Below, in pieces: positions 3,298 to 62,486 of a DNA stretch of 64,000 bases. Source of the stretch: Candidatus Eremiobacteria bacterium (lineage in GTDB: Bacteria; Vulcanimicrobiota; Vulcanimicrobiia; Vulcanimicrobiales; Vulcanimicrobiaceae); contig CAVTRC010000001.1 in NCBI GenBank assembly GCA_963737065.1, positions 608,001 to 672,000 on the forward strand. The letters run 5' to 3'. Position 1 is the stretch's first letter; every line of letters starts with the position of its first letter. A program made the position numbers and the translations under genes. The notes under the pieces were generated by a model that searched no databases, was not told the origin of the DNA, and worked only from the letters and a program-made list of their open reading frames with translations.

Positions 3298-3421
3298 TCT
3301 CCACTAGCCTAGCGAACGCAGATGCGCCGAGCCATAGTGCTCGCCGACAAAACTTCTCGCTTTTTCTGTGCAGCGTGCCAAAGGCAGGTCGTCCGTGTCG
3401 CTGTGAATCATTACCGCACCG

Positions 3422-4813: not shown

Positions 4814-4837
4814 CGGCGTCAGCGCCTTTAGCGCCCG

Positions 4838-5191: not shown

Positions 5192-5204
5192 GCAATTCCT
5201 CTCG

Positions 5205-10500: not shown

Positions 10501-10677
10501 TACCTGATCCGGCGGCAAATTTCCAACGCTCGCCACTACGTCGATCCGCGAAAAGCTCATGTTCGGAAAGATGCTCGCCGGAATCGTCGTGTATGCGTAC
10601 ACGCCGAGCGCCGTGAGAACCGCTACGACAAAGACGACGACTTTTTCGTACCGGGCTCCGAAGGCCGCGAAATTCAC
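7588..10677 (-). CDS. RND efflux permease (AcrB/CusA/CzcA family)
   Basis: 1029 aa; GLIIDDAIVVVENI, GIVVKNGILLID, RLRPILMT motifs. Confidence 0.93.
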   Translation of the reverse strand: MNFAAFGARYEKVVVFVVAVLTALGVYAYTTIPASIFPNMSFSRIDVVASVGNLPPDQVRTAVSLPLEQAFQGLPSVTRVLTTSEQGNAELIVEFDPKTNVQGDLTYVDQAIAQAQTALPPNVNVQASIINPNREPIVSYALTSSTMSQTLLRELAQQSMVPRFYGAPGLARVSVTGGPDREFHVDLNPSALAQYGLTADDVDTALAQATQVTPVGLQIAHYVRNVVVVDANIRTAADLSRITVPTKKNGSVPIGALGAVTLGVAPKVNDVSFDAEPAVIMSFYALPGSDAVKMAGDVAQRADALSRALPAGARLTRFWDQTVLVKESQASLRDAILIGAVLAILVIFVFLRNLRMTLVAAIVIPIAMSIAVFVVGETGETLNLMSVGGLAIAVGLIIDDAIVVVENIARNWHRAWHDTSRAKPAGPPNVAEVVRESMSQIGGAMAASTTTTVVVFIPLALLSGVSGFFFRALALTLASSLIVSLALALFLAPALAKWLIRARDQDREGKDDVIGRVLERYESLLRWTLANRRIVYGGSFVVLVITVLLLSRLPSDFLPKLDEGQFEIAYQLPVGTSLQASGAAAQRMEELVLRDPAVASVGRWTGVDTNGISPIPQNQGILRVRLKPANERVGYETVSDRLRDVLTGAFPGAQLDFHQILEDMINDVSGAPAPLEIELQGPDQATLVKYANVIASAIGKVNGVTDTFSGVVYTDPTIRVAPDQRRLAQLGIQSGSLTNALAAQTQGSVATTIPGANMLVPVRITIGGSGAALNEHTVNTPNGVVALPSLARIAPAQLSTTITENNGQREMLITATISGANLSTVIAGVKRAIASAQLPPGYRTTIAGEYAAQQSSFREFGIVIAIAVALVFAVMLATFGSYRLPLVILTAIPLALIGVALGLWVTATPFNVSSFMGLLLLVGIVVKNGILLIDVANRRRVAGDSVEEALVIAGRTRLRPILMTTFAAIGGLLPLALGIGSGAAMEKPLAIAVIGGLSTATAFTLVVIPVLYAGFSSKEHVAAMREAIA

Positions 10678-12059
10678 TCCCCCATTGTGGTTCGCGCAGA
10701 TGACGCATCGATGAACGGCAGGGTCAGCGTAACACGCGCGCCGTGCGGAGCCACATTTGCGAGCGTCAGATTGCCGCCGTGCGCGCGCACGATTGCATCC
10801 GCGATCGAAAGGCCGAGACCGGTTCCGCCGCGTGGTCGCGCAGGATCAGCTCGCCAGAACCGCTCCGTTGCATGGGCGAGACCTTCTTCGGTGAAGCCGG
10901 GGCCGTCGTCCTCGACACGAACATTGACGTCCGGGCTGCCGGCGCGGCGCACGATCCGTACGGCAACGCGGTGGTGCGCGAAGTCGAGCGCGTTGTGAAT
11001 GACGGATGCGACGGCACGTTCCAAGGCTTGCGCGTCGCCGTTCACAAGGGTCTCCCGCGCATCGGTTTCGATCGTGATGTTGCGCGTTGCGGCAGCCGGT
11101 TCGAAGCGCTGGACGGTAAGCGCGATGACTTCGGCGATATCAACCGGCTCGAACGTCATTCGTGCGGAATCAGCGCGCGCGGCGACGAGCAGCGCATCGA
11201 CGAGCGCATCGATGCGATCCACTTCGTATACGATCGTGTGCAACGCTTCGCGGTACTCTCGACTCGTGCGATCCTTGGCAAGTGCGACATCCGCTTCGGC
11301 ACGGATTACGGCGAGCGGCGCGCGCAGCTCGTGCGATGCATCCGCGGTAAAGCGACGCTGCCGCAGGAACGCGCCTTCGAGGCGGTCCAACATCCGATCG
11401 AACGCGGAACTCAGACGTCCCAATTCACCGACGCCTTGCGCGCCAACCCGTTGTGAAAGATCGTGCGCTTCGATTTCGGTTGCGAGGGTCGTGAAGCGTT
11501 CCAGCGGCGCGAGCGCGCGGCGCGCAAGCGTCGCCGATAAGACGACGACGACGCCGCCAACGCCCAGCGCCGCGAGCACCATCGCGACGATCGCAAAACG
11601 ATCGAACTCGTCAATGAACGCGCTGCCTTCCCAGACCGCGACGATCCCATACGCGGTCCCACCGCGCTGGATCGCGGAAATCGCAATCCGTACGTCGGTG
11701 TTGCCCGACCGTACCGTATAATTACCGTTCGACGGGTGTGAGCTCGCAAGGCGCACGATCGCCGGCGGCACGCTCGGAGAGGACGACAAATAGACGCGGC
11801 CGTCATTTGTAAAGACGGCGACCTGCATGACGCCGGCCATCGCATCGAGCAATTGGCCGCGATCCTCCGCATCGAGGTGCACCTCGCCGTCATGAACGTC
11901 GGTGATCGCGGTCGACGCAGCCGCCGCCGTGTCGAGACGCGCATCGAGCGAACTGCGCAGTGAACGGTCGATTGCGGTGAGCGACACGATCGCGATGATA
12001 CCGACGGCGACGAAGACGGCGATCCCGTACGTCCACGCCAGGCGCGTACGCAGGCTCAA
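10674..12059 (-). CDS. Sensor histidine kinase (HAMP-HisKA-HATPase)
   Basis: FTADASHELRAPL H-box, DDGPG, GGTGLGLSI; two TM segments. Confidence 0.93.
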   Translation of the reverse strand: MSLRTRLAWTYGIAVFVAVGIIAIVSLTAIDRSLRSSLDARLDTAAAASTAITDVHDGEVHLDAEDRGQLLDAMAGVMQVAVFTNDGRVYLSSSPSVPPAIVRLASSHPSNGNYTVRSGNTDVRIAISAIQRGGTAYGIVAVWEGSAFIDEFDRFAIVAMVLAALGVGGVVVVLSATLARRALAPLERFTTLATEIEAHDLSQRVGAQGVGELGRLSSAFDRMLDRLEGAFLRQRRFTADASHELRAPLAVIRAEADVALAKDRTSREYREALHTIVYEVDRIDALVDALLVAARADSARMTFEPVDIAEVIALTVQRFEPAAATRNITIETDARETLVNGDAQALERAVASVIHNALDFAHHRVAVRIVRRAGSPDVNVRVEDDGPGFTEEGLAHATERFWRADPARPRGGTGLGLSIADAIVRAHGGNLTLANVAPHGARVTLTLPFIDASSARTTMGE

Positions 12060-12730
12060 CCCGCGCGCTCCATCCGGTAGCCGATGCCGCGAACCGTTTG
12101 CAGGAGCGGCGGTTCACCCGCCGCGTCGATCTTCACGCGCAGACGCCGGACGTACACGTCGACGACGTTCGACGTCGTTTCGCTCGTGCGATTCCAGAGC
12201 GCGGTTTCGATCATCGGACGCGTGAGCACGCGCCCCGCATTGCGCATGAAGTATTCGAGGAAGGCGAGTTCGCGCGCCGTAAGGTCGATCTCGCGATCTC
12301 CACGGGTCACGCGGCGCGTCGAAAGATCGAAGCTCAGATTCCCGATCGTGAGCAACGCCGGCGCAGGCGGCGCTTCGCGCCGCGCGACGCTTCGCAGACG
12401 CGCTTCGAGTTCCCGCATCGCGAACGGCTTGCGAATGTAATCGTCCGCGCCTGCGTCAAGTCCGGCGACCACGTCCTCGGTTTCGTCGCGCGAGGTGGCA
12501 ACTACAATCGGCGTTGCGACGCGCGACGAGCGCAGCGCGCGCAACACCTCGAGCCCGTCGCGTCCCGGTAAGTTCAAATCGAGGACGATCGCGTCGTACT
12601 CCGGCTCGCATGCAAGCGCGAGTCCCGCGTCGCCGTCCCCGGCGACATCGACGACGTGTCCTTGGTCTTGCAGCCCGCGGCGCATCGCATCCGCGAGCCG
12701 ATCGTCGTCTTCTACGATCAGTAATCGCAC
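12056..12730 (-). CDS. OmpR-family response regulator
   Basis: LIVEDD, LDLNLPG, GADDYIRKPF, VDVYVRRLR, TVRGIGY. Confidence 0.95.
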   Translation of the reverse strand: MRLLIVEDDDRLADAMRRGLQDQGHVVDVAGDGDAGLALACEPEYDAIVLDLNLPGRDGLEVLRALRSSRVATPIVVATSRDETEDVVAGLDAGADDYIRKPFAMRELEARLRSVARREAPPAPALLTIGNLSFDLSTRRVTRGDREIDLTARELAFLEYFMRNAGRVLTRPMIETALWNRTSETTSNVVDVYVRRLRVKIDAAGEPPLLQTVRGIGYRMERAG

Positions 12731-12743
12731 GGTGCGTCGCGCG

Positions 12744-14243
12744 TTATTTCGCTAACCCAGCCGCGATCTTCGATCCGTTTGGTGAGCCGAGGCCGGTGCA
12801 TGCATCCCAGCCTTTTGCAGCGGAGAATGTGCCGTTATTTCCGCTCGTGACGTCATTGAAATCGGTTTCGTCGCCGTAGAGCTGCGCGTTGATGAAGCCG
12901 GCCGGCGTGCCGCGCGATGCATTGACGAGCGCGATGAGGGCGCTCCACAGTGGAGCGACGGCGCTCGTTCCACCGAACACCGAATCTTGTCCATCAACGC
13001 GGACGTTGTAACCCGTTTGGGGATCTGCATCGCCTGCGACGTCGGGAACCCCGCGATTCTTGAGCGGCGTCGCCGTACCGTTTTCGGTCACGTTGAGCTT
13101 TTGCTGCCACGCCGGCAACGCGAATACCGCACTGACGCCGCCGCCGGTTGCTCCGCCCGACGTGCCGCCGTTCCACACGGTTTCCGCGGTGAGTTTTGCC
13201 CCGCTGCTCTGTACGGTGGTCCCGCCGCACGCCACCACGTGCGGGCTCGACGACGGAAAATCCACATGATCCTGTCCGTCTGAAACGCCGTCGCTCGAAC
13301 CGTTGTCGCCCGATGCGCAGCATACCGTGATGCCGAGCGTGCCTGCGTCTTGGAATGCGCTATCGAACGACGTCATCGCCTGCTGCGTCCACGTTGATTC
13401 CGGACCGCCCCAACTGATGGACACGATCGTCGGTTTGTTCGTCGTGTCGTGCAATGCCGTGGTGATCGCGTCGAGAAATCCCGCATCCGTGTTCGGCGCA
13501 AAATACACGGCAATGGTGGCGCCCTGCGCAACGGCGCCCGCGATTTCGACATCGAGCATCACTTCGCCGTCGGGACCGTCAACTTGTCCGGTCGGCGCGT
13601 TCGTTGCTCCGTCGACCGGCACTGCGACAACGTTCGGCATCTTCAAACCTAGACCTGAAAAATATGTCTGTAAGTCAGATTCCACGTAGCCGCCGCCGAG
13701 CTCGATGAGCGCGATGCACTGACCTTCGCCGGTCGACGTCGTAGGAAAATCATAGAGCGACGCCACTTGCACCGGCGAATAGGACGTCGCCGGAGCCGTG
13801 GCCTGCCGGAAATGCGTTTCTGCTTGCGGGCGATTGTCGAGCCCCAAGACCGCTTTCACGACTCCGTCCAGCTCATCGGGAAGGTGAACAAGCCCGGTGC
13901 GTCCGCGATATTGTCCGCCCTCATATTCGAAAATTTGGAGCGCGACGTTGAACGCGTTGTTGAATTGCTGCACCGTACCCGCGAGACGCACGGTGCGACG
14001 CGGCGAGTGCTGCTCGACCACCTGCAGTCCGTGCGCCTGCGCAAACTGCGTCACGGCTTTCATGTCGCGATCGTCCGCGCCGCACGCATGCGCGAACTCA
14101 TCGCGCGTCATACGCTGCTGCGCCGGCGCATTCGCCTTCGGCCGCAGTACGACAGTGATCTCGAAGCGCTCGGATGGATCGGCATTACGAACGGCCCGCG
14201 CGCCTCGGTACGGTATCCGCTCACTGCCGGCAATAGGCCGCAT
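12744..14243 (-). CDS. S53 family (kumamolisin/sedolisin) serine peptidase with prodomain
   Basis: GEVMLDVE (ExxxD), SISWG, ASGDNG, GGTSAVAP, GWDACTGLGSP. Confidence 0.93.
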   Translation of the reverse strand: MRPIAGSERIPYRGARAVRNADPSERFEITVVLRPKANAPAQQRMTRDEFAHACGADDRDMKAVTQFAQAHGLQVVEQHSPRRTVRLAGTVQQFNNAFNVALQIFEYEGGQYRGRTGLVHLPDELDGVVKAVLGLDNRPQAETHFRQATAPATSYSPVQVASLYDFPTTSTGEGQCIALIELGGGYVESDLQTYFSGLGLKMPNVVAVPVDGATNAPTGQVDGPDGEVMLDVEIAGAVAQGATIAVYFAPNTDAGFLDAITTALHDTTNKPTIVSISWGGPESTWTQQAMTSFDSAFQDAGTLGITVCCASGDNGSSDGVSDGQDHVDFPSSSPHVVACGGTTVQSSGAKLTAETVWNGGTSGGATGGGVSAVFALPAWQQKLNVTENGTATPLKNRGVPDVAGDADPQTGYNVRVDGQDSVFGGTSAVAPLWSALIALVNASRGTPAGFINAQLYGDETDFNDVTSGNNGTFSAAKGWDACTGLGSPNGSKIAAGLAK

Positions 14244-49904: not shown

Positions 49905-50594
49905 TCAGCGGCAACGATTGACGAGCGGTTGAACGAGCGCGCGCACTTCCGACTCTTCGACGCCGATTCTATACTGTGTGAGCGCGACGTCGACGGCAAT
50001 GTTTCCGTACGCGTCCGCCGAGATCAAATTACCATACGAGAAGTCTTTCGGAGCGCGGAGCCGCGTTTCACTTGCTTGTGTCGTTTGAACGGTGCGGTCT
50101 TGTTGCGCGTCGGGACGGACCATCGCTGCCATGGGATTCTTGAAGTTTTCAATGTCCGCAAGCTCCTGTGTGTCGGCCGTCCCCGAAAACTCGTTCAGTG
50201 AGTCCGCCTGAAGGTCCGCAACCACCGATAGCCGCGCACCGAGCGAAGCAACTTCGTGCGCTTCTTGAGGATCCTTGAGCGCGACGGTTGCGAGTTTTTC
50301 GAGCAGCGCATGGATCTTGATGTTGTTTGCGGCTACGTCGTCGACGACGTCCAAAAGGTGCACGTTATCCGCTTCAACCCATCCGTCGCTCTGCGCGACG
50401 TCCATTTTGGCCATGTCTTGTAAGAGCTCGCGCCCTCGGTCGATCATGCCGTCCTGAATAAAAAGGCCTTGGATCGACGGCGCGACGATCGTGCGCACGG
50501 CATTGCACAGTACCGACGTTTTCGTCGTCACGATGATCGGCAGCGGAGTCGCCGGCGCGGCGGGAACGACTACGGCAAGTAGTAACGCGAGCAT
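49905..50594 (-). CDS. Hypothetical exported helical protein
   Basis: GAGGGA RBS before MLALLLAVVVPAAPA; Cys near each end. Confidence 0.6.
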   Translation of the reverse strand: MLALLLAVVVPAAPATPLPIIVTTKTSVLCNAVRTIVAPSIQGLFIQDGMIDRGRELLQDMAKMDVAQSDGWVEADNVHLLDVVDDVAANNIKIHALLEKLATVALKDPQEAHEVASLGARLSVVADLQADSLNEFSGTADTQELADIENFKNPMAAMVRPDAQQDRTVQTTQASETRLRAPKDFSYGNLISADAYGNIAVDVALTQYRIGVEESEVRALVQPLVNRCR

Positions 50595-50756
50595 CGTACT
50601 TCCCTCATATGATTGCGCTGCTCTGCGCGAACGCTTCGCGATTGCGCTCGGTGACGCGTGATAGGTACCATGCCGGGGTTTTGCTCGTGGCGCGTAACAC
50701 GTCAACGGCTCCCGCGAAAGTCACCTGTGTAAAGAGTCCGTAAACTATTAGGACCA

Positions 50757-50841
50757 GAGGCCCAAAGCACCCGCAAGTTCGCGGTGCGGCGACCCGATGC
50801 TCTACGTATTAGGAGTCGGGTTTGGGCTTCAGCGTAAACCC
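50757..50841 (+). other. Candidate structured RNA (three-way junction) upstream of a small ORF
   Basis: GAGGCCCAAA/TTTGGGCTTC closes the hairpins GCACCCGC/GCGGTGC and CCCGA..CTCTA/TAGGAG..TCGGG. Confidence 0.4.
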
Positions 50842-50859
50842 ATATGAGGAGACAACGGA

Positions 50860-51012
50860 ATGCAAGACGCCCCTGACGACATGTGCGTTATCGAAGAATG
50901 GATGCTCGAACTCCTTGAAGACGATCGTCCGATCGAGTATGCCTTCAGGCCGAAACAGGTCAGCGACGGATTACATTGGATGTATCGCGCGTCGCTCATC
51001 CGGCACAACTAA
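50860..51012 (+). CDS. Small hypothetical protein (50 aa) MQDAPDDMCVIEEWMLELLEDDRPIEYAFRPKQVSDGLHWMYRASLIRHN
   Basis: Strong GAGGAG RBS 8 nt before ATG; below the ORF-track length cut-off. Confidence 0.55.
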   Translation: MQDAPDDMCVIEEWMLELLEDDRPIEYAFRPKQVSDGLHWMYRASLIRHN

Positions 51013-51230
51013 CGGCGTTATGCGGTGACGGCGTTGGGGTCGCTATCAATTATGTTGAGTGCGACTCTCACGATCGCGTGATTTTATAGGTGGCGTAAAG
51101 GAAGCGATAACTTGCGGTTAGTCGCCGCCTCGCAAGCGACCGCCTGTGATATTGTAAGACCCGTTCAAGCGTTGGCGCTCTGATTGTTTTTAGAGCGCGG
51201 CGCACGTTCTTGCGTTAAAAAGGGGGCGCC

Positions 51231-51713
51231 ATGTATTGGTACTGCCGGGCATTTCTTTTGTCTTTTTTTGCAATCGTCGGCACGACGGCGGCGATGGCGG
51301 CCGCACCGAACGTCACGCTGCGGCTCGACGCCGCACTCGTTCACGTCGTAAACGGCAAGGTGACGACATCGGCTGTCGATCGTCCGCTCAAGGCCGGTGA
51401 CGTGATCGAATATCGCATCGTTGCGCGTAATGCCGGCAATGCCTCGGCGTTGGCGTTTTCGCCCCTAGGGAAAGTTCCCGCGCATACCGAGTTTTTGCAA
51501 AATGAAGGCGCGAGTCGCGCGGCGCGCGCTTCATATACGCTCGATGGAACGCATTGGTCGGAACATCCCATGGTCCGTGCAGTGAAATCGTCGGGACACG
51601 TCGTTATGGAACCGGCGCCGCGCTCGCTCTATCGCGCGGTGCGATGGACGCTCTCGGGCGCGCTCGTGCCGTCGCAAACGGCGACGTTCGCGTATGAAGT
51701 GCGCGTGCAATGA
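51231..51713 (+). CDS. Small exported DUF11-like single-domain protein (putative chaperone/cap of a fibre system)
   Basis: Signal peptide; KAGDVIEYRIVARNAG...PLGKVPAHTEF...VRW...TFAYEVRVQ*. Confidence 0.8.
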   Translation: MYWYCRAFLLSFFAIVGTTAAMAAAPNVTLRLDAALVHVVNGKVTTSAVDRPLKAGDVIEYRIVARNAGNASALAFSPLGKVPAHTEFLQNEGASRAARASYTLDGTHWSEHPMVRAVKSSGHVVMEPAPRSLYRAVRWTLSGALVPSQTATFAYEVRVQ

Positions 51714-54187
51714 AACTCCACCGGTCTCTTGCGGCGGCGGGCGCGTTTGCGCTCGCCGTTCAACTCACGTCGCCGCTCACGGTTAATGCCGCGAACGGCC
51801 ACGACGACCCCGGAACGCAGGTGACGAACACCGCGAACGCAGTCTATAAAGACGCCGGCGGAAACTCGTACACCACCACCTCCAATACGGTAACGGTGAC
51901 GGTGCAAAACGCGCCGACTCTAACGAATACGCCGGGCACCGGTTCCCCGTATGCGCCGGGACAGGTCGTAACCGACACGTTCGTGCTCACGAACACCGGT
52001 AACGGCGCGGGCACGTTCCAAGTCTCCGATACGTCATCCGCGCCTACGGCGAGCTCCGATGCGGTGCTCGGCGGAAGCGATGCGGCAGCGGCGACGCTCG
52101 GCAACGGCGCGGCGACGTGCACGACACCCGCCGGCTCGCAATCGGCGCCGTGCAAATACGCGGCGACGGTCGGCGGCACGACATACTATTTCACGAGCCT
52201 CAATGGAACGAGCGACAACAACTCGCTCGACTATTGGCTACTCCACACGAATCCGGCGACCGCCGCAGGTTCGTCGATCACCGTCTCCGTGTACTACGCG
52301 CTCGCGACGAGTGCTTCGACGCCCGCGACGGTAACATCGAGCATCTACGCATCGGTGGCGTATCCTGCCGCAGGCAGTGCGCCTGCTACGACGTCGTCCT
52401 CTGTCAACGCAACGGAGTCGAATACCGTTACCGCGGACGCGCGCCTCGACTTGTACAAGGCGAGCAGTCAGAATCCGGCGACCGGCGACATCACGTACAC
52501 GGTCTCTGCGCACAACGGAGGCGCGTTTGCCGCGAAGGATCTGCAATCGGTGAAAGCGCTGCTCGGCAGTGCGACTGCGGGCGTGCTGATCTCCGACAAG
52601 GTTCCGCAGTTCGGTGGGTCGCCGCTTTCGCTCAGCAATTCGGGCACGGTCACCGTTACGCCGAACGCGACGTATGGATTTGCGACCGGCGCGACGGCCG
52701 ACCTGTATTACTCGACGTCGGCAACCGGTACGACTAGCTGGACGAAAGCGACAGGAAATCTTCCGACGGACGGCAGCGTAACCTACGTTGCAATCTTCAT
52801 TCACGGTGGGACCTGCACGAGCGCCGGATACGAGCTGTGCGCGGACACCGGTCATGCGACGACGCCCGGTAACAGCAACGTTGCCTCCGCTGCGGCGATT
52901 GCGTTCTCGTTCACGGTCGTTCAGCCGAGTGGGCCCGGATCGGCCAACGCGAACGCAGTCAAAAACCTCGCGAACGGTGTCATCGGCGACAACCAGTCGA
53001 CGGAGCACATACTCGGACCGGGCATTCCGGGCGGAACGGCCGATACGCCATCGGCGACGCCCATCACAACGAGCGGTCAAGGCATAAACAACACCACGAA
53101 CACCTCGACGAACGGCGCGTCCAATCAGATCGGAAATCAAGCCCTTGCGTCGTACGCGCCGCAAAACGGTCCGTTCGGACAACCGGCCGCCGTTGGGTCG
53201 TATGACGGCGTCGTCGGATCGAATGGATCCAACGATTTCACAGCGTTTCCTTTCGGTCTCGCGGGCGATAGCGTCGTTAATACGAGTACGACGGTGGGAT
53301 CACCGGTAACCGCGGCAACGCTGGGCTCCGCGCAAACGATCTGCGTCGCGCATACGCTCAAAAACAACGGGAATCACGACGACTCGTTCAACATCGTCGC
53401 CACCGTTCCAACGGCATACCAGGTTCCGTCGACCAGCGGTGGAACTGCGGTCGCCGGCTGGAAGACCGGCGTTTATTCCGATGCGGCGTGCAGCGCCGCG
53501 CTCGGCGGATCGACCGACGGATCGCCGGCGGCGACCGCATCGAACGTTGCGATCGCCTCGGGCAACTCGCTCAACTATTACGTGAAATACGTCATTCCAG
53601 CGGGAGTGAAGTACTTCTACCGCTTTGACGCTTCGATCGTTGCGACCAGTGTCGGCAGCGGTTCGCAAAGCGACTCGACGCACGATGAACTTTACTCGGG
53701 ATTCGTCGCGCTCACGAAATCGCAGAATGTCACGAGCAACGGTTGCCCTTCGGGTGTGTCGCCGTCGTATGCAGCCGGCACCGTCTGTCCGACCGGCGTG
53801 ATCGCCTACACGGTCGACTATCGCAACCTCGTGATGGGCACGAGCAGCACCAACATCTCGTTCAACGCGTGCACGACGCAAGCGGGATCGTTGCAGATAA
53901 CGGATGACGGCACGCTCTCGACATCCAGCTCGACGACCACCGTCGCCAATTGGGCATCGTTTGCATCAATGACGGCCGCTCCGTCGGACTCGAGCGCCTC
54001 GTCGTCGTTCACGTACGCCACCGGCGTTCCCGCGGCCGGCGCAAGCCCGACGTGGAGTGCGGCGGCGACGAAGTTTGTCGACACGGTCGGTGGCTCGTCG
54101 TTCCAACTCGTTCCAAAAAACTACAGCGGTCCGTCGGCAACGCAAGGCAATCAGGGGACGGTGACGTTCTCCATCGCGGTGAAGTAA
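51710..54187 (+). CDS. Large exported Ser/Thr/Gly-rich multi-Ig/DUF11-like protein (putative major fibre subunit)
   Basis: Signal peptide, N-terminal PGTQVTNTANAVYKD...SNTV hairpin, Ig-like repeats (LTNTGN, LKNNGN), C-terminal LTK...YTVDYRN...ITDDG...VTFSIAVK. Confidence 0.8.
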   Translation: MKLHRSLAAAGAFALAVQLTSPLTVNAANGHDDPGTQVTNTANAVYKDAGGNSYTTTSNTVTVTVQNAPTLTNTPGTGSPYAPGQVVTDTFVLTNTGNGAGTFQVSDTSSAPTASSDAVLGGSDAAAATLGNGAATCTTPAGSQSAPCKYAATVGGTTYYFTSLNGTSDNNSLDYWLLHTNPATAAGSSITVSVYYALATSASTPATVTSSIYASVAYPAAGSAPATTSSSVNATESNTVTADARLDLYKASSQNPATGDITYTVSAHNGGAFAAKDLQSVKALLGSATAGVLISDKVPQFGGSPLSLSNSGTVTVTPNATYGFATGATADLYYSTSATGTTSWTKATGNLPTDGSVTYVAIFIHGGTCTSAGYELCADTGHATTPGNSNVASAAAIAFSFTVVQPSGPGSANANAVKNLANGVIGDNQSTEHILGPGIPGGTADTPSATPITTSGQGINNTTNTSTNGASNQIGNQALASYAPQNGPFGQPAAVGSYDGVVGSNGSNDFTAFPFGLAGDSVVNTSTTVGSPVTAATLGSAQTICVAHTLKNNGNHDDSFNIVATVPTAYQVPSTSGGTAVAGWKTGVYSDAACSAALGGSTDGSPAATASNVAIASGNSLNYYVKYVIPAGVKYFYRFDASIVATSVGSGSQSDSTHDELYSGFVALTKSQNVTSNGCPSGVSPSYAAGTVCPTGVIAYTVDYRNLVMGTSSTNISFNACTTQAGSLQITDDGTLSTSSSTTTVANWASFASMTAAPSDSSASSSFTYATGVPAAGASPTWSAAATKFVDTVGGSSFQLVPKNYSGPSATQGNQGTVTFSIAVK

Positions 54188-54191
54188 CGAC

Positions 54192-56297
54192 GTGAACCGC
54201 TTCGGTTGGATCGCGGCGATCGTGCTGTGCGCTCTTGCAGCACAGCACGTCGCCGCGTCCCCGACCGGCGGAACGAGCATCGTGAACGAAGCGTCCGCAA
54301 CGTATAGCGATGTCTTCTCGCACGCCTATCAGACCACTTCCAATGCGATCGTCTCGCAAGTCGTGAGCCTCTCGTCGCTCGTCGTCTCGCCGAAACAAAA
54401 TGCGGCGGCACCGGCGTCGGATACGGTTGCGGTGAACGCATCCGCCACGCGCGTCTTCACGATCACCAACACATCGAACATCACCGACGCGTATCGCATC
54501 ACGAGTCTCCAGACGGGGCCACTCGGCGTTACGTCGATTGCATGGATCACACCGCCGGGATCGCTCGCCACGGCGGTCAACGGGAGTGCATCGCCCCAGA
54601 TCGGGCCCGGTTCATCGATCTCCGTTCGCGTGACGCTTTCTACGAGCGGACTCAACGTCGGCCAGTCGGTTCCGATCGCGCTCACCGCGCAGACGACGGT
54701 GACGCAGACCGGAAACGGTCTCGCGCACGATAGCGGTATGGAATGGGTGATCGGTGCGACGGGCCCGCACTTTTCGGGGCCGGCCGGTGCAAACACCACC
54801 GTCCTGAAGACCGTAAATAATGCGAGGCAGGTACAGACCCAACCGGGCGCAACCGTGACATTTCACATTGCTGCACTCAATAGCGGCGGCGCCGCGGCGA
54901 CGAACGTGCAGATCAGCGATCCGGTACCGGCGGGGTTGCGGGTTGATCTGTCATCGGCAGAGTTGAACGGTCAACCCGCGGGCGCGCAAGCGTCACTGAG
55001 CGGAAACACAATCGTGTTTCGCGTTCCGTCGATCGGCGCCCAGCAAAGCGTCGATGCGACGTTCAACGCGATCCTTCCGCCGGGAGAATCGCTCGGCGAG
55101 TCCTTCGTGAACGTCGCGACGACAGCCGCAGACGGCATTCCCGCAACCGCAACGACTCCCGCCGATGTTTTTTCTGGTTCATCGAACATCGTCTTCGATG
55201 GTTTTGCGGGTGCTGGACATCCGATCGCCGGCGCGGTTATCGCGCTGCTCGATGCGAACGGGAAACCGGTCGGAATCAACGCGCCGAATCCGTCGGTTAC
55301 CGGACCGGACGGCAAGTACGCGCTCCCGCTTTCAGTTCAACTGATTCCCGCAGCGGGCGCGCATTTTACGCTGACGATTTCGGCACCGTCGTATCTAAAC
55401 CGGCGCATCACCCTGGTGATTACGCCCACCGCGAACGGGTTCTACAACGTCTCCGAAACATCGGCTGACGCGCAACCGATCGCGGCGGCCGGCGGCTTCA
55501 CCCTCACGATGAACAACGTTCATCTTCAAGACGTCTTCGGGCTGTTCGGCAACCTGCCGCTCTTCGCGCTCAGAACGATCTCCGTCACGAAGACGTCCGA
55601 CAAACAAGCGGCGTCTGCGGGGGACCGGGTGATCTTCACACTCGGTCTGCAAAATCAAACGACGTTTGGAATCGCGAACGTTCGTGTCGTCGATACGATG
55701 CAAGCCGGATTTGCGTATCTGAACGGAACGGCGAGAGTTGACGGGCTTCCACTCGAACCGCTGGTATCTGGACGCACGCTTTCGTGGGTCTTTTCATCGA
55801 TTGCACCGGCGCAGATGCACACGATCACCTATGGCGCAACGATCGTGCCCGGCGTTGCTGCGGGAAGTACCCTTGCGAACAGCGTTTCGGTGAACGGCAG
55901 CGCGGCGATCGGCGGCGTGAATACCGGCGCTTCCGCAAGTACGAGCGTGATGGTCATCGACGGCGTGCTTTCCATGCGCCGCGTCGTGACCGGTAGAGTA
56001 TTCTTCGACGACGCGCATCGCGGTTATTTCGTGCGCGGCGACCGCGCGATCTCCAGCGTTCGCGTCGTCCTTGAAGACGGTTCGTTCGCGATCACCGATT
56101 CCGGCGGCGCGTTTTCGTTTCCGTCCGTTCGCCCCGGATTGCATGTCGTGCGAATCGATCCGCTGACGTTGCCGGCGTCCGCGCGCGCACAGAGTGATGC
56201 GCCGATGAATTCCAGTCGCTCGTACGAGCAGCTATTGCACGGCGTGCTCGACGACGGAACGATGGAAGACGTCGAATTTGCGGTGGCACCGCGATGA
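54192..56297 (+). CDS. Exported protein with two DUF11 domains and a C-terminal SdrD-B/Cna-B-like domain (putative base/adaptor)
   Basis: GGTSIVNEASATYSD...SNAI; LKTV..PGATVTF...SDPVPAG; VTKTSD..AGDRVIF...VDTM; GRVFFDD...TDSGGAFSF...PG. Confidence 0.8.
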   Translation: MNRFGWIAAIVLCALAAQHVAASPTGGTSIVNEASATYSDVFSHAYQTTSNAIVSQVVSLSSLVVSPKQNAAAPASDTVAVNASATRVFTITNTSNITDAYRITSLQTGPLGVTSIAWITPPGSLATAVNGSASPQIGPGSSISVRVTLSTSGLNVGQSVPIALTAQTTVTQTGNGLAHDSGMEWVIGATGPHFSGPAGANTTVLKTVNNARQVQTQPGATVTFHIAALNSGGAAATNVQISDPVPAGLRVDLSSAELNGQPAGAQASLSGNTIVFRVPSIGAQQSVDATFNAILPPGESLGESFVNVATTAADGIPATATTPADVFSGSSNIVFDGFAGAGHPIAGAVIALLDANGKPVGINAPNPSVTGPDGKYALPLSVQLIPAAGAHFTLTISAPSYLNRRITLVITPTANGFYNVSETSADAQPIAAAGGFTLTMNNVHLQDVFGLFGNLPLFALRTISVTKTSDKQAASAGDRVIFTLGLQNQTTFGIANVRVVDTMQAGFAYLNGTARVDGLPLEPLVSGRTLSWVFSSIAPAQMHTITYGATIVPGVAAGSTLANSVSVNGSAAIGGVNTGASASTSVMVIDGVLSMRRVVTGRVFFDDAHRGYFVRGDRAISSVRVVLEDGSFAITDSGGAFSFPSVRPGLHVVRIDPLTLPASARAQSDAPMNSSRSYEQLLHGVLDDGTMEDVEFAVAPR

Positions 56298-59200
56298 AGC
56301 GGTTGGGAAGAGCGTTGCAGTGTGCGGGCGCCGCGCTTATGGTCGCGTCGTTTATGACGTCGATGACGACCCGCGTTTCCGATGCCGATACGGCGGCCGG
56401 CGCGGCGACGGCAACGTTCGTCGCGCCGAACCCGGGCAGCGCTGCGCCGATCGGCGCAACCAACGTCATCATCTCGACCCAACTCGGCAGTTCGATCGAG
56501 TTGCTCGACGACGGCGAACTCGTCGACGGAAAGCACCTCGGTAAGCGAACGTTCAACAAATCGACCGGCGAGGCGCAATGGTTTTTCTACGGCGTCACAT
56601 TGCACCCGGGACCGAACGAACTCGTCGCGACCGCGCTCCGCGCGCCCGGGTTACGTGGAACGCCGGCGACATTGACCGTCTATGGACCCGGTGACGCGCA
56701 GACAATTCGCGCGGAGTTCGGATCGCATTTACGTGCCGATGGAAAAACGATCGCTCCGCTCAATATTACGGTCAGCGACCGGTACGGCAATGCTGCGGCG
56801 CCCGCGCAACGTGTGGACGTGCGAATTTTGCGCGGAAACGTAACCTTCGGCGATCTGCCGAAAGACGGTACGAACGCCGCACCGGCGTCGCCGGACGTTC
56901 TCACTTCGCCCGCGCCGCAGGGCGCGCTTTCCGCGCAAGTGCCGCTTCCCGTCGGTGGATATCTGTCGCTTCCCGTCGTGTCGGGAACGCTCGCCGGCGC
57001 ATTCGACATCGAGGTACGCGTCGGCAACGCGTATCTTCGGCGTTCGTTCTACGTCGAGCCATACGTTCGCCCCGCATTCGTTACGGGGCTTGCGTCGGTC
57101 GGCGTCGGCGCCGTCCCGGGTGACGTCGACGGCGACGGTATCGAAGACGGCGGCGGAGCGCGCCGCGAGCGCGCAGCGATTTTCGCAACGGGAGCCGTTG
57201 GACGCACGCTCGTGACCGCCGGCTACGAATCGCAAAACCGTCTGTCGCCCGTTTCGTCTCTCGGTGCGCCGGTCGATTCGCCCAATAGCCGTCCGTATTT
57301 GACGTACGGCGACAGCTCGACGATCGCACAGCCGTATCGCTCGCAAGATCACTTCTACGCGCGCGTGGATCGCGGAAGGTCGAGCGCATTGTGGGGGCAG
57401 TACGTTGCGGACGTCGGGCCACCGGACGTGGGCGGATATCAGCAGCTCTTGAACGGCGCGAAGGTCGATGTGTCGCTCGGTGCGAGCGGACGCGCGCGTG
57501 TAACCGCGTTTACCGCGCGCAATCAGCAAGCGTTCATTTCGACGATTCTTCCGTTGACGGGACTCGCCACGCTTTCCGCACCGCTTCACCCCGACATCGT
57601 CGTCGGCTCGGATCTGCTGCAGTTGGTGACGCTCGACCGCGCGACGGGTTTGATGATTCGAGAGACACCACTCTTGCGAAACGTCGACTACACAATCGAT
57701 TACGCGACGGGCATCCTGCGTTTCATCAACGTACCGCTACCGTACGACCCGCAGTTCAATCCGCAAGTCGTCTCGCTGCAATACGAATACCAGGGGCCGG
57801 GCGTCGCATCACAGACGACCGGTGCGCAGGTCAGCTACGCGCTTTCCCTCGACGGCCGCACGACGGCCCGTGCAGGTTACGTCAACGACGCAACCGGAAC
57901 GCAAAATTTCGCGCTCGTCACACAATCGCTAGCGCGGACATGGGCGAACGGATCGTTTACCGTTTCTCATGCTTCCAGCGCCGGGTTCGTTCCGAGCGCC
58001 GGAAGCTCGACGCAACTGGGCGCGGCGACCGTGGTGCCGCATAACGGCGAAGCGATCTCCGTCGCGCTCGATGAACGGAATGCCACGAATGCCGTTGCGC
58101 TCGGATATCAGTCGACTAGCGCGGGTTATAACGATCCGTTCGGTGGATTCAGCTCGCCCGGAACGCGCGCATATCGTGCGATCTATTCACTCGGCACGGC
58201 GCGTGCCGGTCAACTGCAAATGAACCTCTCGGGTGAAAGTAACACCGGCATCGGAGCGGCAAGCAGCGAGCTCGACGGTGCGGTGACGTACCTGCGCGCC
58301 CTCACGTCCCGCTTGACGATGAGCGCGGGCGTTGCCGAGCATCGCCAAACGATCGGGGCGCAGCCGTCGGCGTCTCCCGCTGCGAACGTCGCATTAGCGA
58401 ATACGCAGCAGACGCAGGCGCAGGCATCCCTCACCTACCGCATGCCGGAGCGTCTCGGCATTTCGGTTTCGGAATCCGACACGCTGCGCGGCAGTGATGC
58501 GGGCTCAACGCAACCGTCTCAGACGCAACTCGAAGCGACGTACGACTTGCCAAAGCGCGGCCGTTTGTTCTTCCGCGAACTTTGGAGCGATCAACCGTCG
58601 GCGACGTTTGCGAATTCAACGGCAAATCTCAATATCGCGTCGGGCTCGACCCATTCGATGCAATTCGGGGTCGAACAGCCGCTCTCGGCGGCAACGACGG
58701 TTAGCTCGCAATACGTCATCGATCAAGTCGCGTCGGGCGTGAATATCTATGCCGCGGCAGGCATTGACGAACGCGTGCATCTCGGCAAAGCAATTGCCGG
58801 AAACTTGACGTTGCAATCGGCAAACGCAGTTGGCGCGGGAGCGGAGGGATTCACCGTTCTCGGTGCCGCGCTCACATACGCGCCGGCGAGCGGGAAGTTT
58901 CGCAGTTCGGTTTCGTATCAAGATCGAACGGGCGCGTCGTCCGGATCGACCGTTTCCGCGGCAATCGCAGGTCATATCAGCGACGCTCTCTCAGCGGTGG
59001 GCTTCATTCAACGCGCATACGGCAACGGGATCAACGCGATCGACGATCGGTTGTCGGTTGCGTATCGTCCGCGCGCCGACGATCGCCTCATCTCACTCTT
59101 CGATTACGAGCGAGGCAACGAGACCGGGCTCGCCGGTGAAGCGGCGAACGTCGCCTCGTTCGAAGAGTTGTTTCGCATGACGCAGACCTTTGAACTCGCC

Positions 59201-59527
59201 GGCCGGTTTGCATACAAATTCGACGGCGGCGGCGAGTACGCGGCGCGCACCGTGCTGTGGTTGGGACGCGCAACGCAGCATGTCGGCTCGCGCGGTGATG
59301 TCGCGCTCGAGGCGCGGACGGCCATCGTTCCGGGCGCGACCGGCGCACGCACGACCGCCGTCGCCGCCGAAGCCGGCGAGACCATTGGGCGCACGGCGCG
59401 CGCCGCGGTTGGTTACAACATCGCCGGAAGCGTCGATCCGTCGCTGCTCGGCGTCCCGCAACGCAAAGGCATCTACATAACCTTCACAACGCTGATCGAT
59501 CGTATCTTCGGGTGGGGAAAACCATGA
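56294..59527 (+). CDS. Large exported protein: Ig-like N-terminal domains plus predicted outer-membrane beta-barrel
   Basis: Signal peptide; LHPGPNEL, LRADG Ig/invasin-like motifs; YGDSS; DYTIDYATG.LRF; long run of amphipathic beta-strands ending KGIYITFT. Confidence 0.75.
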   Translation: MKRLGRALQCAGAALMVASFMTSMTTRVSDADTAAGAATATFVAPNPGSAAPIGATNVIISTQLGSSIELLDDGELVDGKHLGKRTFNKSTGEAQWFFYGVTLHPGPNELVATALRAPGLRGTPATLTVYGPGDAQTIRAEFGSHLRADGKTIAPLNITVSDRYGNAAAPAQRVDVRILRGNVTFGDLPKDGTNAAPASPDVLTSPAPQGALSAQVPLPVGGYLSLPVVSGTLAGAFDIEVRVGNAYLRRSFYVEPYVRPAFVTGLASVGVGAVPGDVDGDGIEDGGGARRERAAIFATGAVGRTLVTAGYESQNRLSPVSSLGAPVDSPNSRPYLTYGDSSTIAQPYRSQDHFYARVDRGRSSALWGQYVADVGPPDVGGYQQLLNGAKVDVSLGASGRARVTAFTARNQQAFISTILPLTGLATLSAPLHPDIVVGSDLLQLVTLDRATGLMIRETPLLRNVDYTIDYATGILRFINVPLPYDPQFNPQVVSLQYEYQGPGVASQTTGAQVSYALSLDGRTTARAGYVNDATGTQNFALVTQSLARTWANGSFTVSHASSAGFVPSAGSSTQLGAATVVPHNGEAISVALDERNATNAVALGYQSTSAGYNDPFGGFSSPGTRAYRAIYSLGTARAGQLQMNLSGESNTGIGAASSELDGAVTYLRALTSRLTMSAGVAEHRQTIGAQPSASPAANVALANTQQTQAQASLTYRMPERLGISVSESDTLRGSDAGSTQPSQTQLEATYDLPKRGRLFFRELWSDQPSATFANSTANLNIASGSTHSMQFGVEQPLSAATTVSSQYVIDQVASGVNIYAAAGIDERVHLGKAIAGNLTLQSANAVGAGAEGFTVLGAALTYAPASGKFRSSVSYQDRTGASSGSTVSAAIAGHISDALSAVGFIQRAYGNGINAIDDRLSVAYRPRADDRLISLFDYERGNETGLAGEAANVASFEELFRMTQTFELAGRFAYKFDGGGEYAARTVLWLGRATQHVGSRGDVALEARTAIVPGATGARTTAVAAEAGETIGRTARAAVGYNIAGSVDPSLLGVPQRKGIYITFTTLIDRIFGWGKP

Positions 59528-61050
59528 CGCGGCTATTGATGCGTCTCGTGGTCGCGGCGGCGTTCGCGATCGTGACGTGCGCGTTTGCGAGCGCCTCGAC
59601 GATCATGGTCTTGAGCGACAGCGCGGGCGTCTATTTGATCGATTCCGCGACCGGCAAAGTCGTTCAGTCGTACGGCAACCTCTTCTCCGGAAGCAGCGCG
59701 CAGGACGTCGCTGAAGACCTCAACGGCAACCTGTACGTGACCGATAGCTCCGGCAACCTCCGAAAGGCGACGTTCAACGCGAACGCCGGATCGTCGACCG
59801 GCGCGTATGCCGCGGCGACCGTCGTCGGCGCGATCCCCGGATATACTTCCGCGGTTGCGCGTCTTGCGTGGGATCCCACCACGTTGTATTGCGCGACCGG
59901 CTGCCTCGTGACGATGAACAGCAGCGGAAATTCGCTCGATTGGATCAATCCGGCGACGGCCGCCATCGTAAAAAGCGTCGCGGTGAGTCCGGCCATCTCG
60001 GGTGGCGGCGACCTTGTCATCGACCCCACTGCGGTGAACAACGCGGCCGTCTACGTCGTCTCCGGAAAAGCGTTTTACAGCGTCAATCCGTCGACGGGCG
60101 CGTCGACCTCGATCGCGACGTTTTCGTGGCCGGGGCTCACGGCGAATCTGACGGGACTTGCGCTCCTGGCGAACGGCGATCTGGTTGGATGCGAACAAAA
60201 AGGCAGCGGAACGGCCTGGACGCTTTGGGAATTCACGACCGCCGGAGCGCTCGTCACGAGCCAAACGGGCATTAGCACCGGAAGCGACGTGGTGAACGAC
60301 CTCGCTTCGGTTCCGGCGACGTTCACGACGTCGAAAACCGGCACCGCGAATGCGGGCCTCGGCGACACGATGATTTATACCGTCACATTGAAGAACACGA
60401 GTTACTTCACCGTGCCGACGGCCGCGATGACCGACCCATATCCTTCGACGATCAGCGTTTTATCGTCGCCGGCGCCGTCGTGCAGTGTTTCCGGCGGCGG
60501 CAGTTGCACCGCGACGCTGAACCCGAGCGCAAGCCCTTCGCCCGACGTTGTCGCAAGCGTTACGAACTTGGCCGCCGGCGCAACCGCCACGATGACGTTC
60601 GAAGGTTCACCGAGCGCGAGTGCGAGCGGGACCGTCTCGAACACGGCAAACTCGAGCGTTCCGTTCGATCCCAACGAGTACGGCGGCTCGACCGCTGCAA
60701 CGAACACCATCAACACAACGATCACGGCGTCCGAATTTGCGAAACAGGTAGCAAACATCACGGAGGGCCTTGCGCCGGGCACGAGCTTGATCGGCAAACC
60801 GGGTGATGTCGTGGAATACACCCTGACGTTCACGAACCGCCGCGGCTTTTCGCTGGCGTCCTTTCAAATCAACGACCCGGTGCCGACGGGAACGACGTAC
60901 GTCGCAAACAGCGCAACGTGCATAAGTCAGCCCGCGGGGCTCACCTGCGCGCCGTCGCAGTCAGGCGGCGTCGTGTCGTTTGTTTACACCGGCACGAGCT
61001 TGGCCGCCAACGGCGTCGTCAGCGCAAAGTTCCGCGTAACGATCAACTAA
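59524..61050 (+). CDS. Exported beta-propeller plus two DUF11 domains (putative tip adhesin)
   Basis: Signal peptide; propeller-like repeats (DVAEDLNGNLYV, GDLVIDP, GLALLANGDL, DLAS); SKTG..GDTMIYTV..TDPYP..VSNTA; AKQV..PGDVVEYTL..NDPVP..KFRVTIN*. Confidence 0.8.
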   Translation: MTRLLMRLVVAAAFAIVTCAFASASTIMVLSDSAGVYLIDSATGKVVQSYGNLFSGSSAQDVAEDLNGNLYVTDSSGNLRKATFNANAGSSTGAYAAATVVGAIPGYTSAVARLAWDPTTLYCATGCLVTMNSSGNSLDWINPATAAIVKSVAVSPAISGGGDLVIDPTAVNNAAVYVVSGKAFYSVNPSTGASTSIATFSWPGLTANLTGLALLANGDLVGCEQKGSGTAWTLWEFTTAGALVTSQTGISTGSDVVNDLASVPATFTTSKTGTANAGLGDTMIYTVTLKNTSYFTVPTAAMTDPYPSTISVLSSPAPSCSVSGGGSCTATLNPSASPSPDVVASVTNLAAGATATMTFEGSPSASASGTVSNTANSSVPFDPNEYGGSTAATNTINTTITASEFAKQVANITEGLAPGTSLIGKPGDVVEYTLTFTNRRGFSLASFQINDPVPTGTTYVANSATCISQPAGLTCAPSQSGGVVSFVYTGTSLAANGVVSAKFRVTIN

Positions 61051-61058
61051 CGAAGGCC

Positions 61059-62486
61059 CTACTTCGGGTACGTCATCTCTTTGGGCACGACGTACGTATC
61101 GAATTCGTCCGGCGTTACATGGCCGAGTGCGAGCGCCGCGTCTTTCAGCGTCGTTCCTTCGTGATGCGCCTTCTTCGCGATCTCGGCGGCTTTGTCGTAC
61201 CCGATCTTCGGCGAGAGCGCGGTGACCGTCATCAACGATTCACCGAGATACTTCTTGATCACGCGTTCATTTGCTTGAAGTCCCTCGACCGCGTGCTCGC
61301 GGAACATCGTGCACGTGTCGCGCAGCAAGTGACAGCTGTGAAGGAAGTTCGCAATCATCACCGGGTTGAACACGTTGAGCTCGAAGTTGCCCTGAGACGC
61401 GCCGAAACTGATCGCGGTATCGTTGCCGTAGACCTGCGCGACCACCATCGTCATCGCTTCCGATTGTGTGGGGTTGACTTTGCCGGGCATGATCGAGCTG
61501 CCCGGCTCGTTCTCCGGCAGAATCAGTTCGCCGATACCGGCGCGCGGGCCCGATGAGAGCCACCGGATGTCGTTCGCAATCTTCATCAGCGCAGCGGCAA
61601 GCGTCTTGAGCGCGCCCGACGCAAAAACGAAGTCATCGTGCGAGGCAAGAGCGGTGAATTTATTCGGATGCGAGCGGAACGGAAGGGCGGTCAATTCGGC
61701 GATCTTACGCGCCATGCGCTCCGCGAACTCCGGATGCGCGTTGAGGCCCGTACCGACGGCGGTGCCGCCGATCGCGAGATCGTAGAGGTGATTGTTCGCT
61801 TCATTGATCGCGACGATCGCGCGGTCGAGTTGCGTGACGTAGCCTGAGAACTCTTGACCGAGCGTCAGCGGGGTCGCATCCTGCAAGTGCGTGCGGCCGA
61901 CCTTCACGAGCTCTTTCCACTGCTCGGCTTTTTGCTCCAGCGCATCGCGCAATTTCACGACCGCGGGCAGCATCTGCACGACCGCTTCCGCAGCGGCCAT
62001 GTGCATCGCCGTCGGAAACGTATCGTTCGACGACTGGGACATGTTGACGTGGTCGTTCGGATGGACCGGTTTCTTCGAACCCATCTCGCCGCCGCCGATC
62101 TCGATCGCGCGGTTCGAGATGACTTCGTTGACGTTCATATTGGTTTGCGTGCCCGAACCGGTCTGCCAAATGCGAAGCGGGAAATGCGCGTCGAGTTTTC
62201 CGGCAATGACTTCATCGGCCGCCGCAACGATGAGCTTCGTCTTTTCGTCGTCGAGTTTTCCGAGATCGTGATTGACGAGTGCCGCAGCTTTTTTCAGCTG
62301 CGCCATTGCAACGATCACTTGCTTCGGCATCACGTCGCGCGGCCAGCTCCCGTCGCCGATGTCGAAATGGATGAGCGAGCGCGCCGACTGCGCGCCGTAA
62401 TACTTGTCTGAAGGAACGTCGATTTTGCCCATCGAGTCGCTCTCGACGCGCTTCTTTACGTGTCCGTTCGTTTCACTCGTCGTCAT
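61059..62486 (-). CDS. fumC: Class II fumarate hydratase
   Basis: [33 protein letters not shown]. Confidence 0.97.

Follow-up and report, generated by a model that had tools for sequence, protein, structure and literature searches.

A probable surface-fibre shaft subunit of Vulcanimicrobiota with an immunoglobulin-like domain apparently split between its two ends

The window analysed here is a 64,000-nucleotide (nt) stretch of a Candidatus Eremiobacteria genome (GenBank assembly GCA_963737065.1, contig CAVTRC010000001.1, positions 608,001 to 672,000 of the forward strand), with a G+C content of about 0.61. It holds an operon for five proteins, P0002, P0001, P0003, P0004 and P0005 in gene order, of which P0001 is the principal subject of this report: P0001 is probably the shaft subunit of a surface fibre, in which a hairpin donated by one subunit complements an open domain of another and a covalent bond locks the two together. 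The fibre is most likely an undescribed cell-surface fibre of Gram-negative soil bacteria. Central to this reading is a split immunoglobulin (Ig)-like domain, which is well supported: the last domain of P0001 lacks its Asn-bearing strands, and the N-terminus of the protein carries them. Polymerisation between copies, with the hairpin of one copy entering another, is the most likely reading of this split, and a fairly probable one.

P0001 consists of a leader, a hairpin and four domains, laid out as follows (nt positions are those of the window):

Residues 1-27: signal peptide
51809-51907, + strand: donor hairpin, residues 34-66, with Asn40 at nt 51827-51829
51908-52435, + strand: domain 1, residues about 67-242, a complete CLIPPER/DUF11-like Ig domain with no isopeptide Lys
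52442-53143, + strand: domain 2, residues about 245-478, a CnaA-like pilin domain with the triad Lys250/Asp296/Asn419
53156-53659, + strand: domain 3, residues about 483-650, a beta-sandwich
53663-54184, + strand: domain 4, residues 652-825, the open acceptor domain, with Lys670 at nt 53717-53719, Asp732 at nt 53903-53905 and C679/C693

The leader ends in LTVNA/ANG and has no cysteine lipobox; a conserved QNAP linker follows the hairpin directly. The AlphaFold2 model of P0001 is all-beta, with a mean predicted local distance difference test score (pLDDT) of 78.8 and a predicted template modelling score (pTM) of 0.57; pLDDT in the hairpin is 66-87. Comparison of this model by VIA-align with one representative per Protein Data Bank (PDB) cluster, the best 50 matches being listed, pairs domain 1 (66-242) with TTHA1873 (Z 8.7, root-mean-square deviation (rmsd) 3.3, 127 residues aligned) and RrgB (Z 8.6), and 117 of 123 residues of the solved CLIPPER/DUF11 domain 9ifr align with model range 66-241 (Z 7.4). 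Since domain 1 aligns whole from residue 66, the hairpin at 34-65 is an extra element that lies outside it. Assignment of the hairpin to domain 1 was accordingly rejected: the structural alignment has this domain complete from residue 66 without the hairpin. In sequence, the first strand of domain 1 has no Lys. Domain 2 matches CnaA-type domains of major pilins, BcpA (Z 8.4), PitA (8.3) and SpaD (7.6), and probably has an internal isopeptide bond, while domain 3 matches the N-terminal domain of PorA (Z 8.2, rmsd 3.8, 127 aligned, model range 483-665).

The residues on which this reading turns are where a preliminary description of the DNA had put them. A script check places Asn40 in VTNTA, which starts at residue 38 (nt 51827), Lys670 in VALTK from 666 (nt 53717) and Asp732 in ITDDG from 730 (nt 53903), and recovers the internal triad as LDLYK (Lys250), ISDKVP (Asp296) and VKNLA (Asn419). 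The chain ends in VTFSIAVK and stops at residue 825, so that domain 4 is, as described, without an Asn strand; the closely spaced cysteine pairs that had been noticed are 137/148, 369/377 and 679/693, out of cysteines at 137, 148, 369, 377, 545, 594, 679, 693 and 721. P0001 is also, as had been claimed, the sole protein of the operon with both halves, the hairpin and an open Lys/Asp domain. The central proposal had been that a domain is circularly split and that Asn40 of one copy bonds Lys670 of the next: the split is upheld by docking, conservation and the existence of donor-only and acceptor-only partners, and the bonding between copies is what the operon logic suggests. The proposal should be refined in one respect, in that P0003, with the hairpin only, and P0005, with the open domain only, would join the P0001 chain as its base and its tip.

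Both halves of the split domain are strongly conserved. Among 48 full-length P0001 homologues, drawn from 80 genome loci that were found with a P0004 profile, Asn40 is present in 48/48, Lys670 in 46/48 and an acid at position 732 in 46/48 (Glu in 33, Asp in 13, other in 2), which bears out the expectation that these three would be conserved. The catalytic acid is presumably position 732, as Asp or Glu; the neighbouring position 733 carries Asp in 40 homologues and Asn in the other 8, and G734 is invariant (48/48). In the hairpin and just after it, S58, N59, V65 and P69 are likewise found in 48/48, and Y46 and D48 in 47/48; a first alignment of 32 homologues, at 34-76% identity, had N40, Y46, D48, S58, N59, V65 and P69 all invariant. 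Residues 51-75 form the most conserved 25-residue segment of P0001 (mean column identity 0.73, n=48). The internal triad of domain 2 is kept in most homologues (K250 44/48, D296 46/48, N419 43/48), C679 is the sole invariant cysteine (48/48), and the pairs 137/148 and 369/377 are lineage-specific, occurring in 12-14 of the 48.

Complex prediction supports the proposal that the hairpin completes domain 4. Residues 31-70 were modelled with residues 650-825, each with a 32-row alignment, in three runs and with three controls: the interaction prediction score from aligned errors (ipSAE) is 0.77, 0.75 and 0.75 (score 0.75) versus 0.00 for the best of the three controls, a mark that 116 of 157 complexes of known structure attain, as do 2 of 215 mismatched pairs. 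Between runs at least 96% of contacts are shared, with partner pLDDT of at least 76. Each half is predicted with more confidence in the presence of the other: domain 4 has pLDDT 79-80 with the hairpin versus 66-71 with unrelated partners, and the hairpin 76-78 with domain 4 versus 37 with an unrelated acceptor. In the docked models strand 42-47 pairs with 727-732, residues 666 and 668 contact 46, 44, 42 and 58, and the interface comprises 663-672, 727-732 and 734 of the acceptor (with Lys670, Asp732 and Gly734) and 35-52 of the hairpin, with residues 63-68 also taking part. Extrapolated from this strand register, Asn40 would lie beside Lys670 and 732-734. The sequence pattern of the hairpin is that which ends complete DUF11 domains in the neighbouring proteins.

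The neighbours of P0001 provide the operon logic. The five gene products, each of which starts with a signal-peptide-like leader, are:

51231-51713, + strand: P0002, 160 residues, secreted, with a DUF11-like domain
51710-54187, + strand: P0001, 825 residues, proposed shaft subunit
54192-56297, + strand: P0003, 701 residues, donor-only, proposed base subunit
56294-59527, + strand: P0004, 1077 residues, proposed outer-membrane conduit and anchor
59512-61050, + strand: P0005, 512 residues, acceptor-only, proposed tip

When the hairpin motif is scored on the open reading frames (ORFs) of the 80 genome loci, it is found in 48/48 P0001-like and 53/58 P0003-like proteins and in none of 45 tips, 57 P0002-like or 63 P0004-like proteins, counts that take the feature far from chance. 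In three of the five P0003-like proteins that miss the motif the Asn is still visible; the other two have Ser or Ala. The 45 tip proteins are of two kinds, 30 that share domains 3-4 with P0001 and 15 that are P0005-like; the bonding Lys is kept in 30/30 and 15/15 and the acid in 29/30 and 15/15, the Asn strand is missing from their own chain, and nearly all the tips listed stop right after the strand that precedes the missing hairpin. That the tips retain the bonding Lys and the catalytic acid without an Asn strand of their own is understandable only with an Asn supplied by another chain. Bifunctional, donor-only and acceptor-only classes are, moreover, what a linear chain needs: a tip, n copies of P0001, and P0003.

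P0003 carries its hairpin right after the leader (Asn32, about nt 54267-54365). The rest of the protein consists of complete domains: DUF11, a match to an RrgB-type isopeptide domain model, CarboxypepD_reg, a DUF11 with the full triad and an SdrD_B-like domain; in its complete DUF11, K8, D42 and N104 (profile numbering) are invariant in 33 sequences. P0005 has an N-terminal part with a weak, sub-threshold DUF5074 match, then one complete DUF11 (profile 9-107/114) with its own Asn hairpin, and from about nt 60724 a last DUF11 (profile 15-84/114) that contains Lys411 and Asp455 and ends without an Asn hairpin; K411 and D455 are each found in 15/15 P0005-like tips. In one relative the N-terminal domain of the acceptor-only tip (L021, 12067-14121) resembles a legume lectin (E 3.4e-12, a match that does not reach the Pfam cut-off), which fits an adhesive tip.

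P0002, with P0002-like ORFs numbering 57 in the 80 genome loci, is a candidate partner of the hairpin. Profile comparison with a complete DUF11 gives Prob 96.9 and E 1.3e-10, the match covering DUF11 columns 6-89 of 136: P0002 ends at column 89, just short of the Asn strands, and has no counterpart of the template Lys (K8) and Asp (D42). An open domain that could take a hairpin and not bond it suggests a holder or a cap, and our guess is that P0002 holds or caps hairpins non-covalently and reversibly in the periplasm.

Put together, these elements suggest the following route of assembly. Export by Sec and removal of the signal peptide would leave a free two-strand hairpin (34-66) at the N-terminus of each subunit, and its C-terminal CnaA/DUF11-like domain (652-825) would be without exactly those last strands. 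The hairpin of a neighbour would enter between the first strand (666-672, with Lys670) and strand 727-732 (with Asp732) and complete the fold; Asn40 would then be set beside Lys670 and the acid, and a Lys-Asn isopeptide bond would form spontaneously, as inside ordinary CnaA and CLIPPER domains. P0005, with an open domain and no hairpin, would start the chain and thus be the distal tip, and P0003, with a hairpin and no open domain, would end it and tie the fibre to the giant outer-membrane barrel P0004. The chain would lock covalently without an enzyme. A broader proposal, to which we give about an even chance, is that of a novel class of pili, spanning phyla, whose natural 'tag-and-catcher' subunits self-polymerise without a sortase or a PapD-type chaperone and are tied through a donor-only stalk to a giant barrel, with P0002 as a new pilus chaperone.

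We interpret P0004 as an outer-membrane barrel of very large size that belongs to no family yet described. The AlphaFold2 model of P0004 (pLDDT 75.4, pTM 0.62, 50-row alignment) contains a leader helix (the signal peptide), two Ig-like domains (41-255) and 44 strand elements, assigned by DSSP, between 262 and 1068. By VIA-align the Ig part matches intimin D00-D0 (Z 11.4), and the barrel (260-1068) matches outer-membrane barrels in general: with 394 residues aligned, the SlpA complex of Deinococcus radiodurans scores Z 14.2, and porins follow at Z 12-13, FimD at Z 11.8 and PapC at Z 10.9; Foldseek adds LptD, MtrB and SprA at low template modelling (TM) scores. Sequence searches of Pfam, NCBIfam and the PDB give no match for P0004, and 14 homologues are also without a chaperone-usher Pfam family. 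The family is large: out of 1.84 billion representative clusters, a P0004 profile matches 3343 at E ≤ 0.001, of which 1381 reach E ≤ 1e-30. Among the best 150 representatives, 59 are at least 1400 residues long, with a P0003-like part fused to the barrel, and 91 are barrel-only; a hidden Markov model detects the N-terminal donor hairpin in 34 of the 59 long proteins (Asn in 33/34) and in none of the 91. Many family members are fusions of 1500-3600 residues with DUF11 stalks, and in eight long fused proteins scanned by Pfam the N-terminal part contains DUF11 in 8/8 and SdrD_B in 7/8. In other lineages, then, the counterparts of P0003 and P0004 are fused into a single polypeptide, and this links the donor-only stalk to the barrel.

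The system recurs in the phylum and beyond it. A sample of 151 genomes from the phylum has P0001 homologues in 25, the window's own genome included, and only one of the 25 lies outside the window's own class; the close homologues come from sources named Eremiobacteraeota, Baltobacteraceae or Velthaea. All 20 loci from relatives' genomes have the order P0002-P0001-P0003-P0004, with a tip gene nearby in most. Most of the 80 loci that the P0004 profile brought up, almost all titled Eremiobacterota or Vulcanimicrobiota, have the same four-gene order. The named relatives of one fused protein, P0142, belong to the Acidobacteriota (Pyrinomonadaceae). In a metagenome set of 34 loci of at least 18 kilobases, found with the fusion protein, a P0002-like gene is present in 34/34, a protein of about 680 residues with an N-terminal hairpin and a C-terminal acceptor in 31/34 and a barrel fusion that begins with a hairpin in 32/34. 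Downstream, 21/34 encode an acceptor-only protein, several of the loci being cut off too early for one to be seen. The 31 shaft-like proteins of this set have the Asn in 31/31, the Lys in 31/31 and, as the acid, Glu in 31/31.

Some loci depart from the common arrangement. L025, from the genome that also contains L081, has two P0002-P0001 pairs in tandem within one operon, at 3193-6030 and 8812-11552, which could provide two shaft subunit types for one fibre. Two loci of the same phylum have no P0001-like gene nearby: in L084 a P0003-like ORF of 2460 residues (2493-9875) overlaps an ORF of 2695 residues (4727-12814) that ends in a P0004-like barrel, and in L080 (9722-18068) a P0003-like protein of 1793 residues follows the barrel gene.

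In the window, the ends of the operon genes overlap by 4 nt for P0002/P0001 (51710-51713), 4 nt for P0003/P0004 (56294-56297) and 16 nt for P0004/P0005 (59512-59527), which suggests coupled translation. A scan of 50500-61400 for promoters and terminators gave nothing above shuffled sequence (1 promoter-like match versus a mean of 2.4; 10 terminator-like versus 12.6). The large flanking ORFs are, as we take it from their translations, housekeeping genes, with mutS, mutL, miaA, miaB, der, plsY and an efp-like gene upstream and a fumarase-like gene downstream. Upstream of the operon, across a gap of about 525 base pairs, lies an ORF of 266 residues on the opposite strand (49905-50705, - strand) with a hydrophobic N-terminal stretch.

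The window's own genome (completeness 95.33%) has a single copy of P0001, an Omp85/BamA homologue and LpxC, and it gives no match to sortase (PF04203); VTFSIAVK, the C-terminus of P0001, is neither an LPXTG signal nor a membrane anchor. The LpxC match (G000:C1:1522631-1523415; L114, L115) is split between two open frames, profile 2-43 and 41-267, and may reflect a frameshift, a sequencing error or a start-site artefact. The available text of PMC9758169 describes, for the single cultured member of the phylum, a cell wall typical of Gram-negatives, outer membrane included.

Several observations weigh against a covalently locked shaft. In profile searches, whole P0001 matches no Pfam (E ≤ 0.1) or NCBIfam model, nor therefore DUF11 (PF01345) above its gathering score, a family that its neighbours P0003 and P0005 match with 62.5 and 41 bits; five pieces of P0001 searched against Pfam at E ≤ 10 give nothing for the hairpin (28-70) or domain 4 (650-825). 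Domain 4 is not among the best 50 structural matches of the P0001 model, and Foldseek finds for the whole model generic multi-Ig matches only, with TM-scores of 0.09-0.15. Direct comparison with the complete DUF11 by hhalign is weak for both halves: domain 4 reaches Prob 35.6 over 20 columns, covering the 'PGd-i-Y-t---N' signature only, and the hairpin, against the complete DUF11 of P0003, Prob 7.4 over columns 96-114, with Asn40 on N104. The bonding residues have exceptions, Lys670 being missing in 2/48 P0001 homologues and the Asn absent from 2/58 P0003-like proteins. The pair N40-K670 is absent from the 25 least-error docking contacts listed, its closeness being extrapolated from the register, and, since structures of complete CnaA-like folds are available, a split domain may score well on re-docking. 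Of the eight fusions scanned, two have SLH (P0214) or OmpA (P0238) domains between stalk and barrel, so that the stalk may lie on either side of the outer membrane. Sequence features, conservation, operon logic and docking were observed or computed, and from them we infer that the bond forms, that it forms between copies, how the fibre is oriented, that it passes through P0004 and what P0002 does.

The docking score, in particular, fits insertion in cis and in trans alike, and the hairpin could enter domain 4 of its own chain, making P0001 a ring-like, covalently closed monomeric adhesin and leaving P0003 and P0005 as the only pair. The monomer model is compatible with such a closure, as the hairpin has the pLDDT of 66-87 given above and a pTM of 0.57 is fairly high for a string of domains, so that the model could have closed a ring. 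But the linker from hairpin to domain 1 has only about five conserved residues (QNAPT), and residues 63-68 are predicted to pack on domain 4 already, so that closure in cis would have to bend four domains into a ring; tandem DUF11 domains are described as stalks in the available text of the CLIPPER survey (PMC12617251); and one donor-only and one acceptor-only protein are kept in the operon across two phyla, which indicates that the system uses the hairpin in trans. We therefore regard intramolecular closure as improbable. Slightly less probable again is an exchange of hairpins that stays non-covalent, as in chaperone-usher or type V pili, with the Lys and the acid kept for packing. Strand complementation alone yields known pili of great stability, and the same system contains in P0002 an open domain that has neither Lys nor Asp. 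A precedent comes from BsaA of Clostridium perfringens, whose N35A mutant forms oligomers that are stable in sodium dodecyl sulphate until heating, according to the available text of the report (bioRxiv 10.1101/2024.11.04.621531). Against such an exchange, 46-48 of the 48 homologues and 31/31 metagenome proteins, from two phyla, retain the Lys, the acid and the Asn, and the same positions form the bond in the complete domains of the operon (K8/D42/N104). Finally, P0001 might be an ordinary monomeric multi-domain adhesin of the surface or periplasm, its N-terminal strands being part of domain 1, as the lack of a Pfam match and the generic Ig arrays among the fold matches would allow; against this stand a domain 1 that is complete from residue 66 and has no Lys in its first strand, and a hairpin that docks on domain 4 (0.75 versus 0.00), and we consider it very improbable.

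A shaft built by donor-hairpin complementation would have counterparts in chaperone-usher pili (Fim, Pap), where an incomplete Ig fold is completed by the N-terminal extension of the next subunit, non-covalently and with one donor strand; the tip is acceptor-only, the terminator is donor-only, assembly takes place at an outer-membrane barrel, and both a PapD-like chaperone and a 24-strand usher are required. The tip/shaft/terminator logic proposed here is similar, and FimD and PapC are among the matches of the P0004 barrel; P0004, however, resembles porins and SlpA as well as or better than ushers, and no Pfam family of PapD-like chaperones or FimD/PapC ushers is found in P0002-P0005 or in the 14 P0004 homologues. 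Sortase pili (SpaA, RrgB, BcpA) consist of covalently linked subunits whose CnaA/CnaB pilin domains have internal isopeptide bonds; the operon would share these traits, and domains 1-2 match RrgB, BcpA and SpaD at Z 7.6-8.6. In those pili, by contrast, a sortase joins the threonine of LPXTG to a pilin-motif lysine, whereas here no sortase was found in a 95.33% complete genome, LPXTG is absent and the envelope is diderm. As for the type V pili of Bacteroidota, whose pilins are made as FimA/Mfa lipoprotein precursors that proteolysis activates, the operon proteins give no FimA-type Pfam match and P0001 has no lipobox.

A chemical parallel is that of SpyTag/SpyCatcher (and likewise DogTag/DogCatcher), in which a strand with a bonding residue is separated from its domain and reacts with it spontaneously in trans. 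Those are artificial pairs, obtained from a CnaB or RrgA domain that was cut; the split in P0001 would be natural, and its halves lie at opposite ends of one protein, which would give a polymer. The CLIPPER (DUF11) domains, found as stalk domains in fibrillar adhesins, are of the same domain type and would share the Lys/Asp/Asn chemistry: in 9IFR the residues are Lys715, Asp748 and Asn806, and the bond is treated as intramolecular in the available text of the survey, in whose main text, to the extent available, the words 'donor' and 'split' do not occur (PMC12617251). The CLIPPER triad lies within one contiguous domain, as does the full triad of P0001 domain 2, whereas domain 4 lacks the Asn.

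Donor-strand fibres with a spontaneous lock are already in print in two cases, both with unrelated folds and in cells without an outer membrane, as far as the available texts go. BsaA, of the TasA family, is described as assembling by 'donor strand exchange and lock', with an N35-K74 isopeptide bond that E56 helps to form and mutants that lose oligomers (bioRxiv 10.1101/2024.11.04.621531). As in the reading of P0001 favoured here, an N-terminal segment inserts into the sheet of the next subunit and a Glu-aided Asn-Lys lock follows; the published description differs in its TasA/camelysin-like fold, its Gram-positive host and its lack of an outer-membrane component, and the BsaA donor is a single strand from a disordered loop, where that of P0001 is the last two strands of a split Ig domain. 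The five operon proteins have no TasA-type Pfam family, the folds found being Ig-like pilin domains, and a Pfam scan of the same five gives no SipW-type signal peptidase. The archaeal thread of Saci_0406 is, in the available text, a head-to-tail donor-strand fibre with a covalent link from the N-terminal Asp24 amine to Asn57; it shares with the operon a candidate donor-only cap in a neighbouring gene and differs in being archaeal, in having no outer membrane and in belonging to another fold family (PMC9715654). A literature search that covered few subscription journals found no description of the fibre system reported here.

If the reading of P0001 as a fibre shaft is true, covalently linked fibres are built by diderms from two or more soil phyla in a manner not described for Gram-negatives, with one Ig-like domain, split across the ends of a subunit, providing both assembly and cross-linking without an enzyme. 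This would add a class of pili to the chaperone-usher, type IV, type V, curli and sortase pili and would give a function to the large, uncharacterised family of outer-membrane barrels to which P0004 belongs. It would also mean that nature holds pre-evolved peptide/protein ligation pairs of the SpyTag/SpyCatcher kind.

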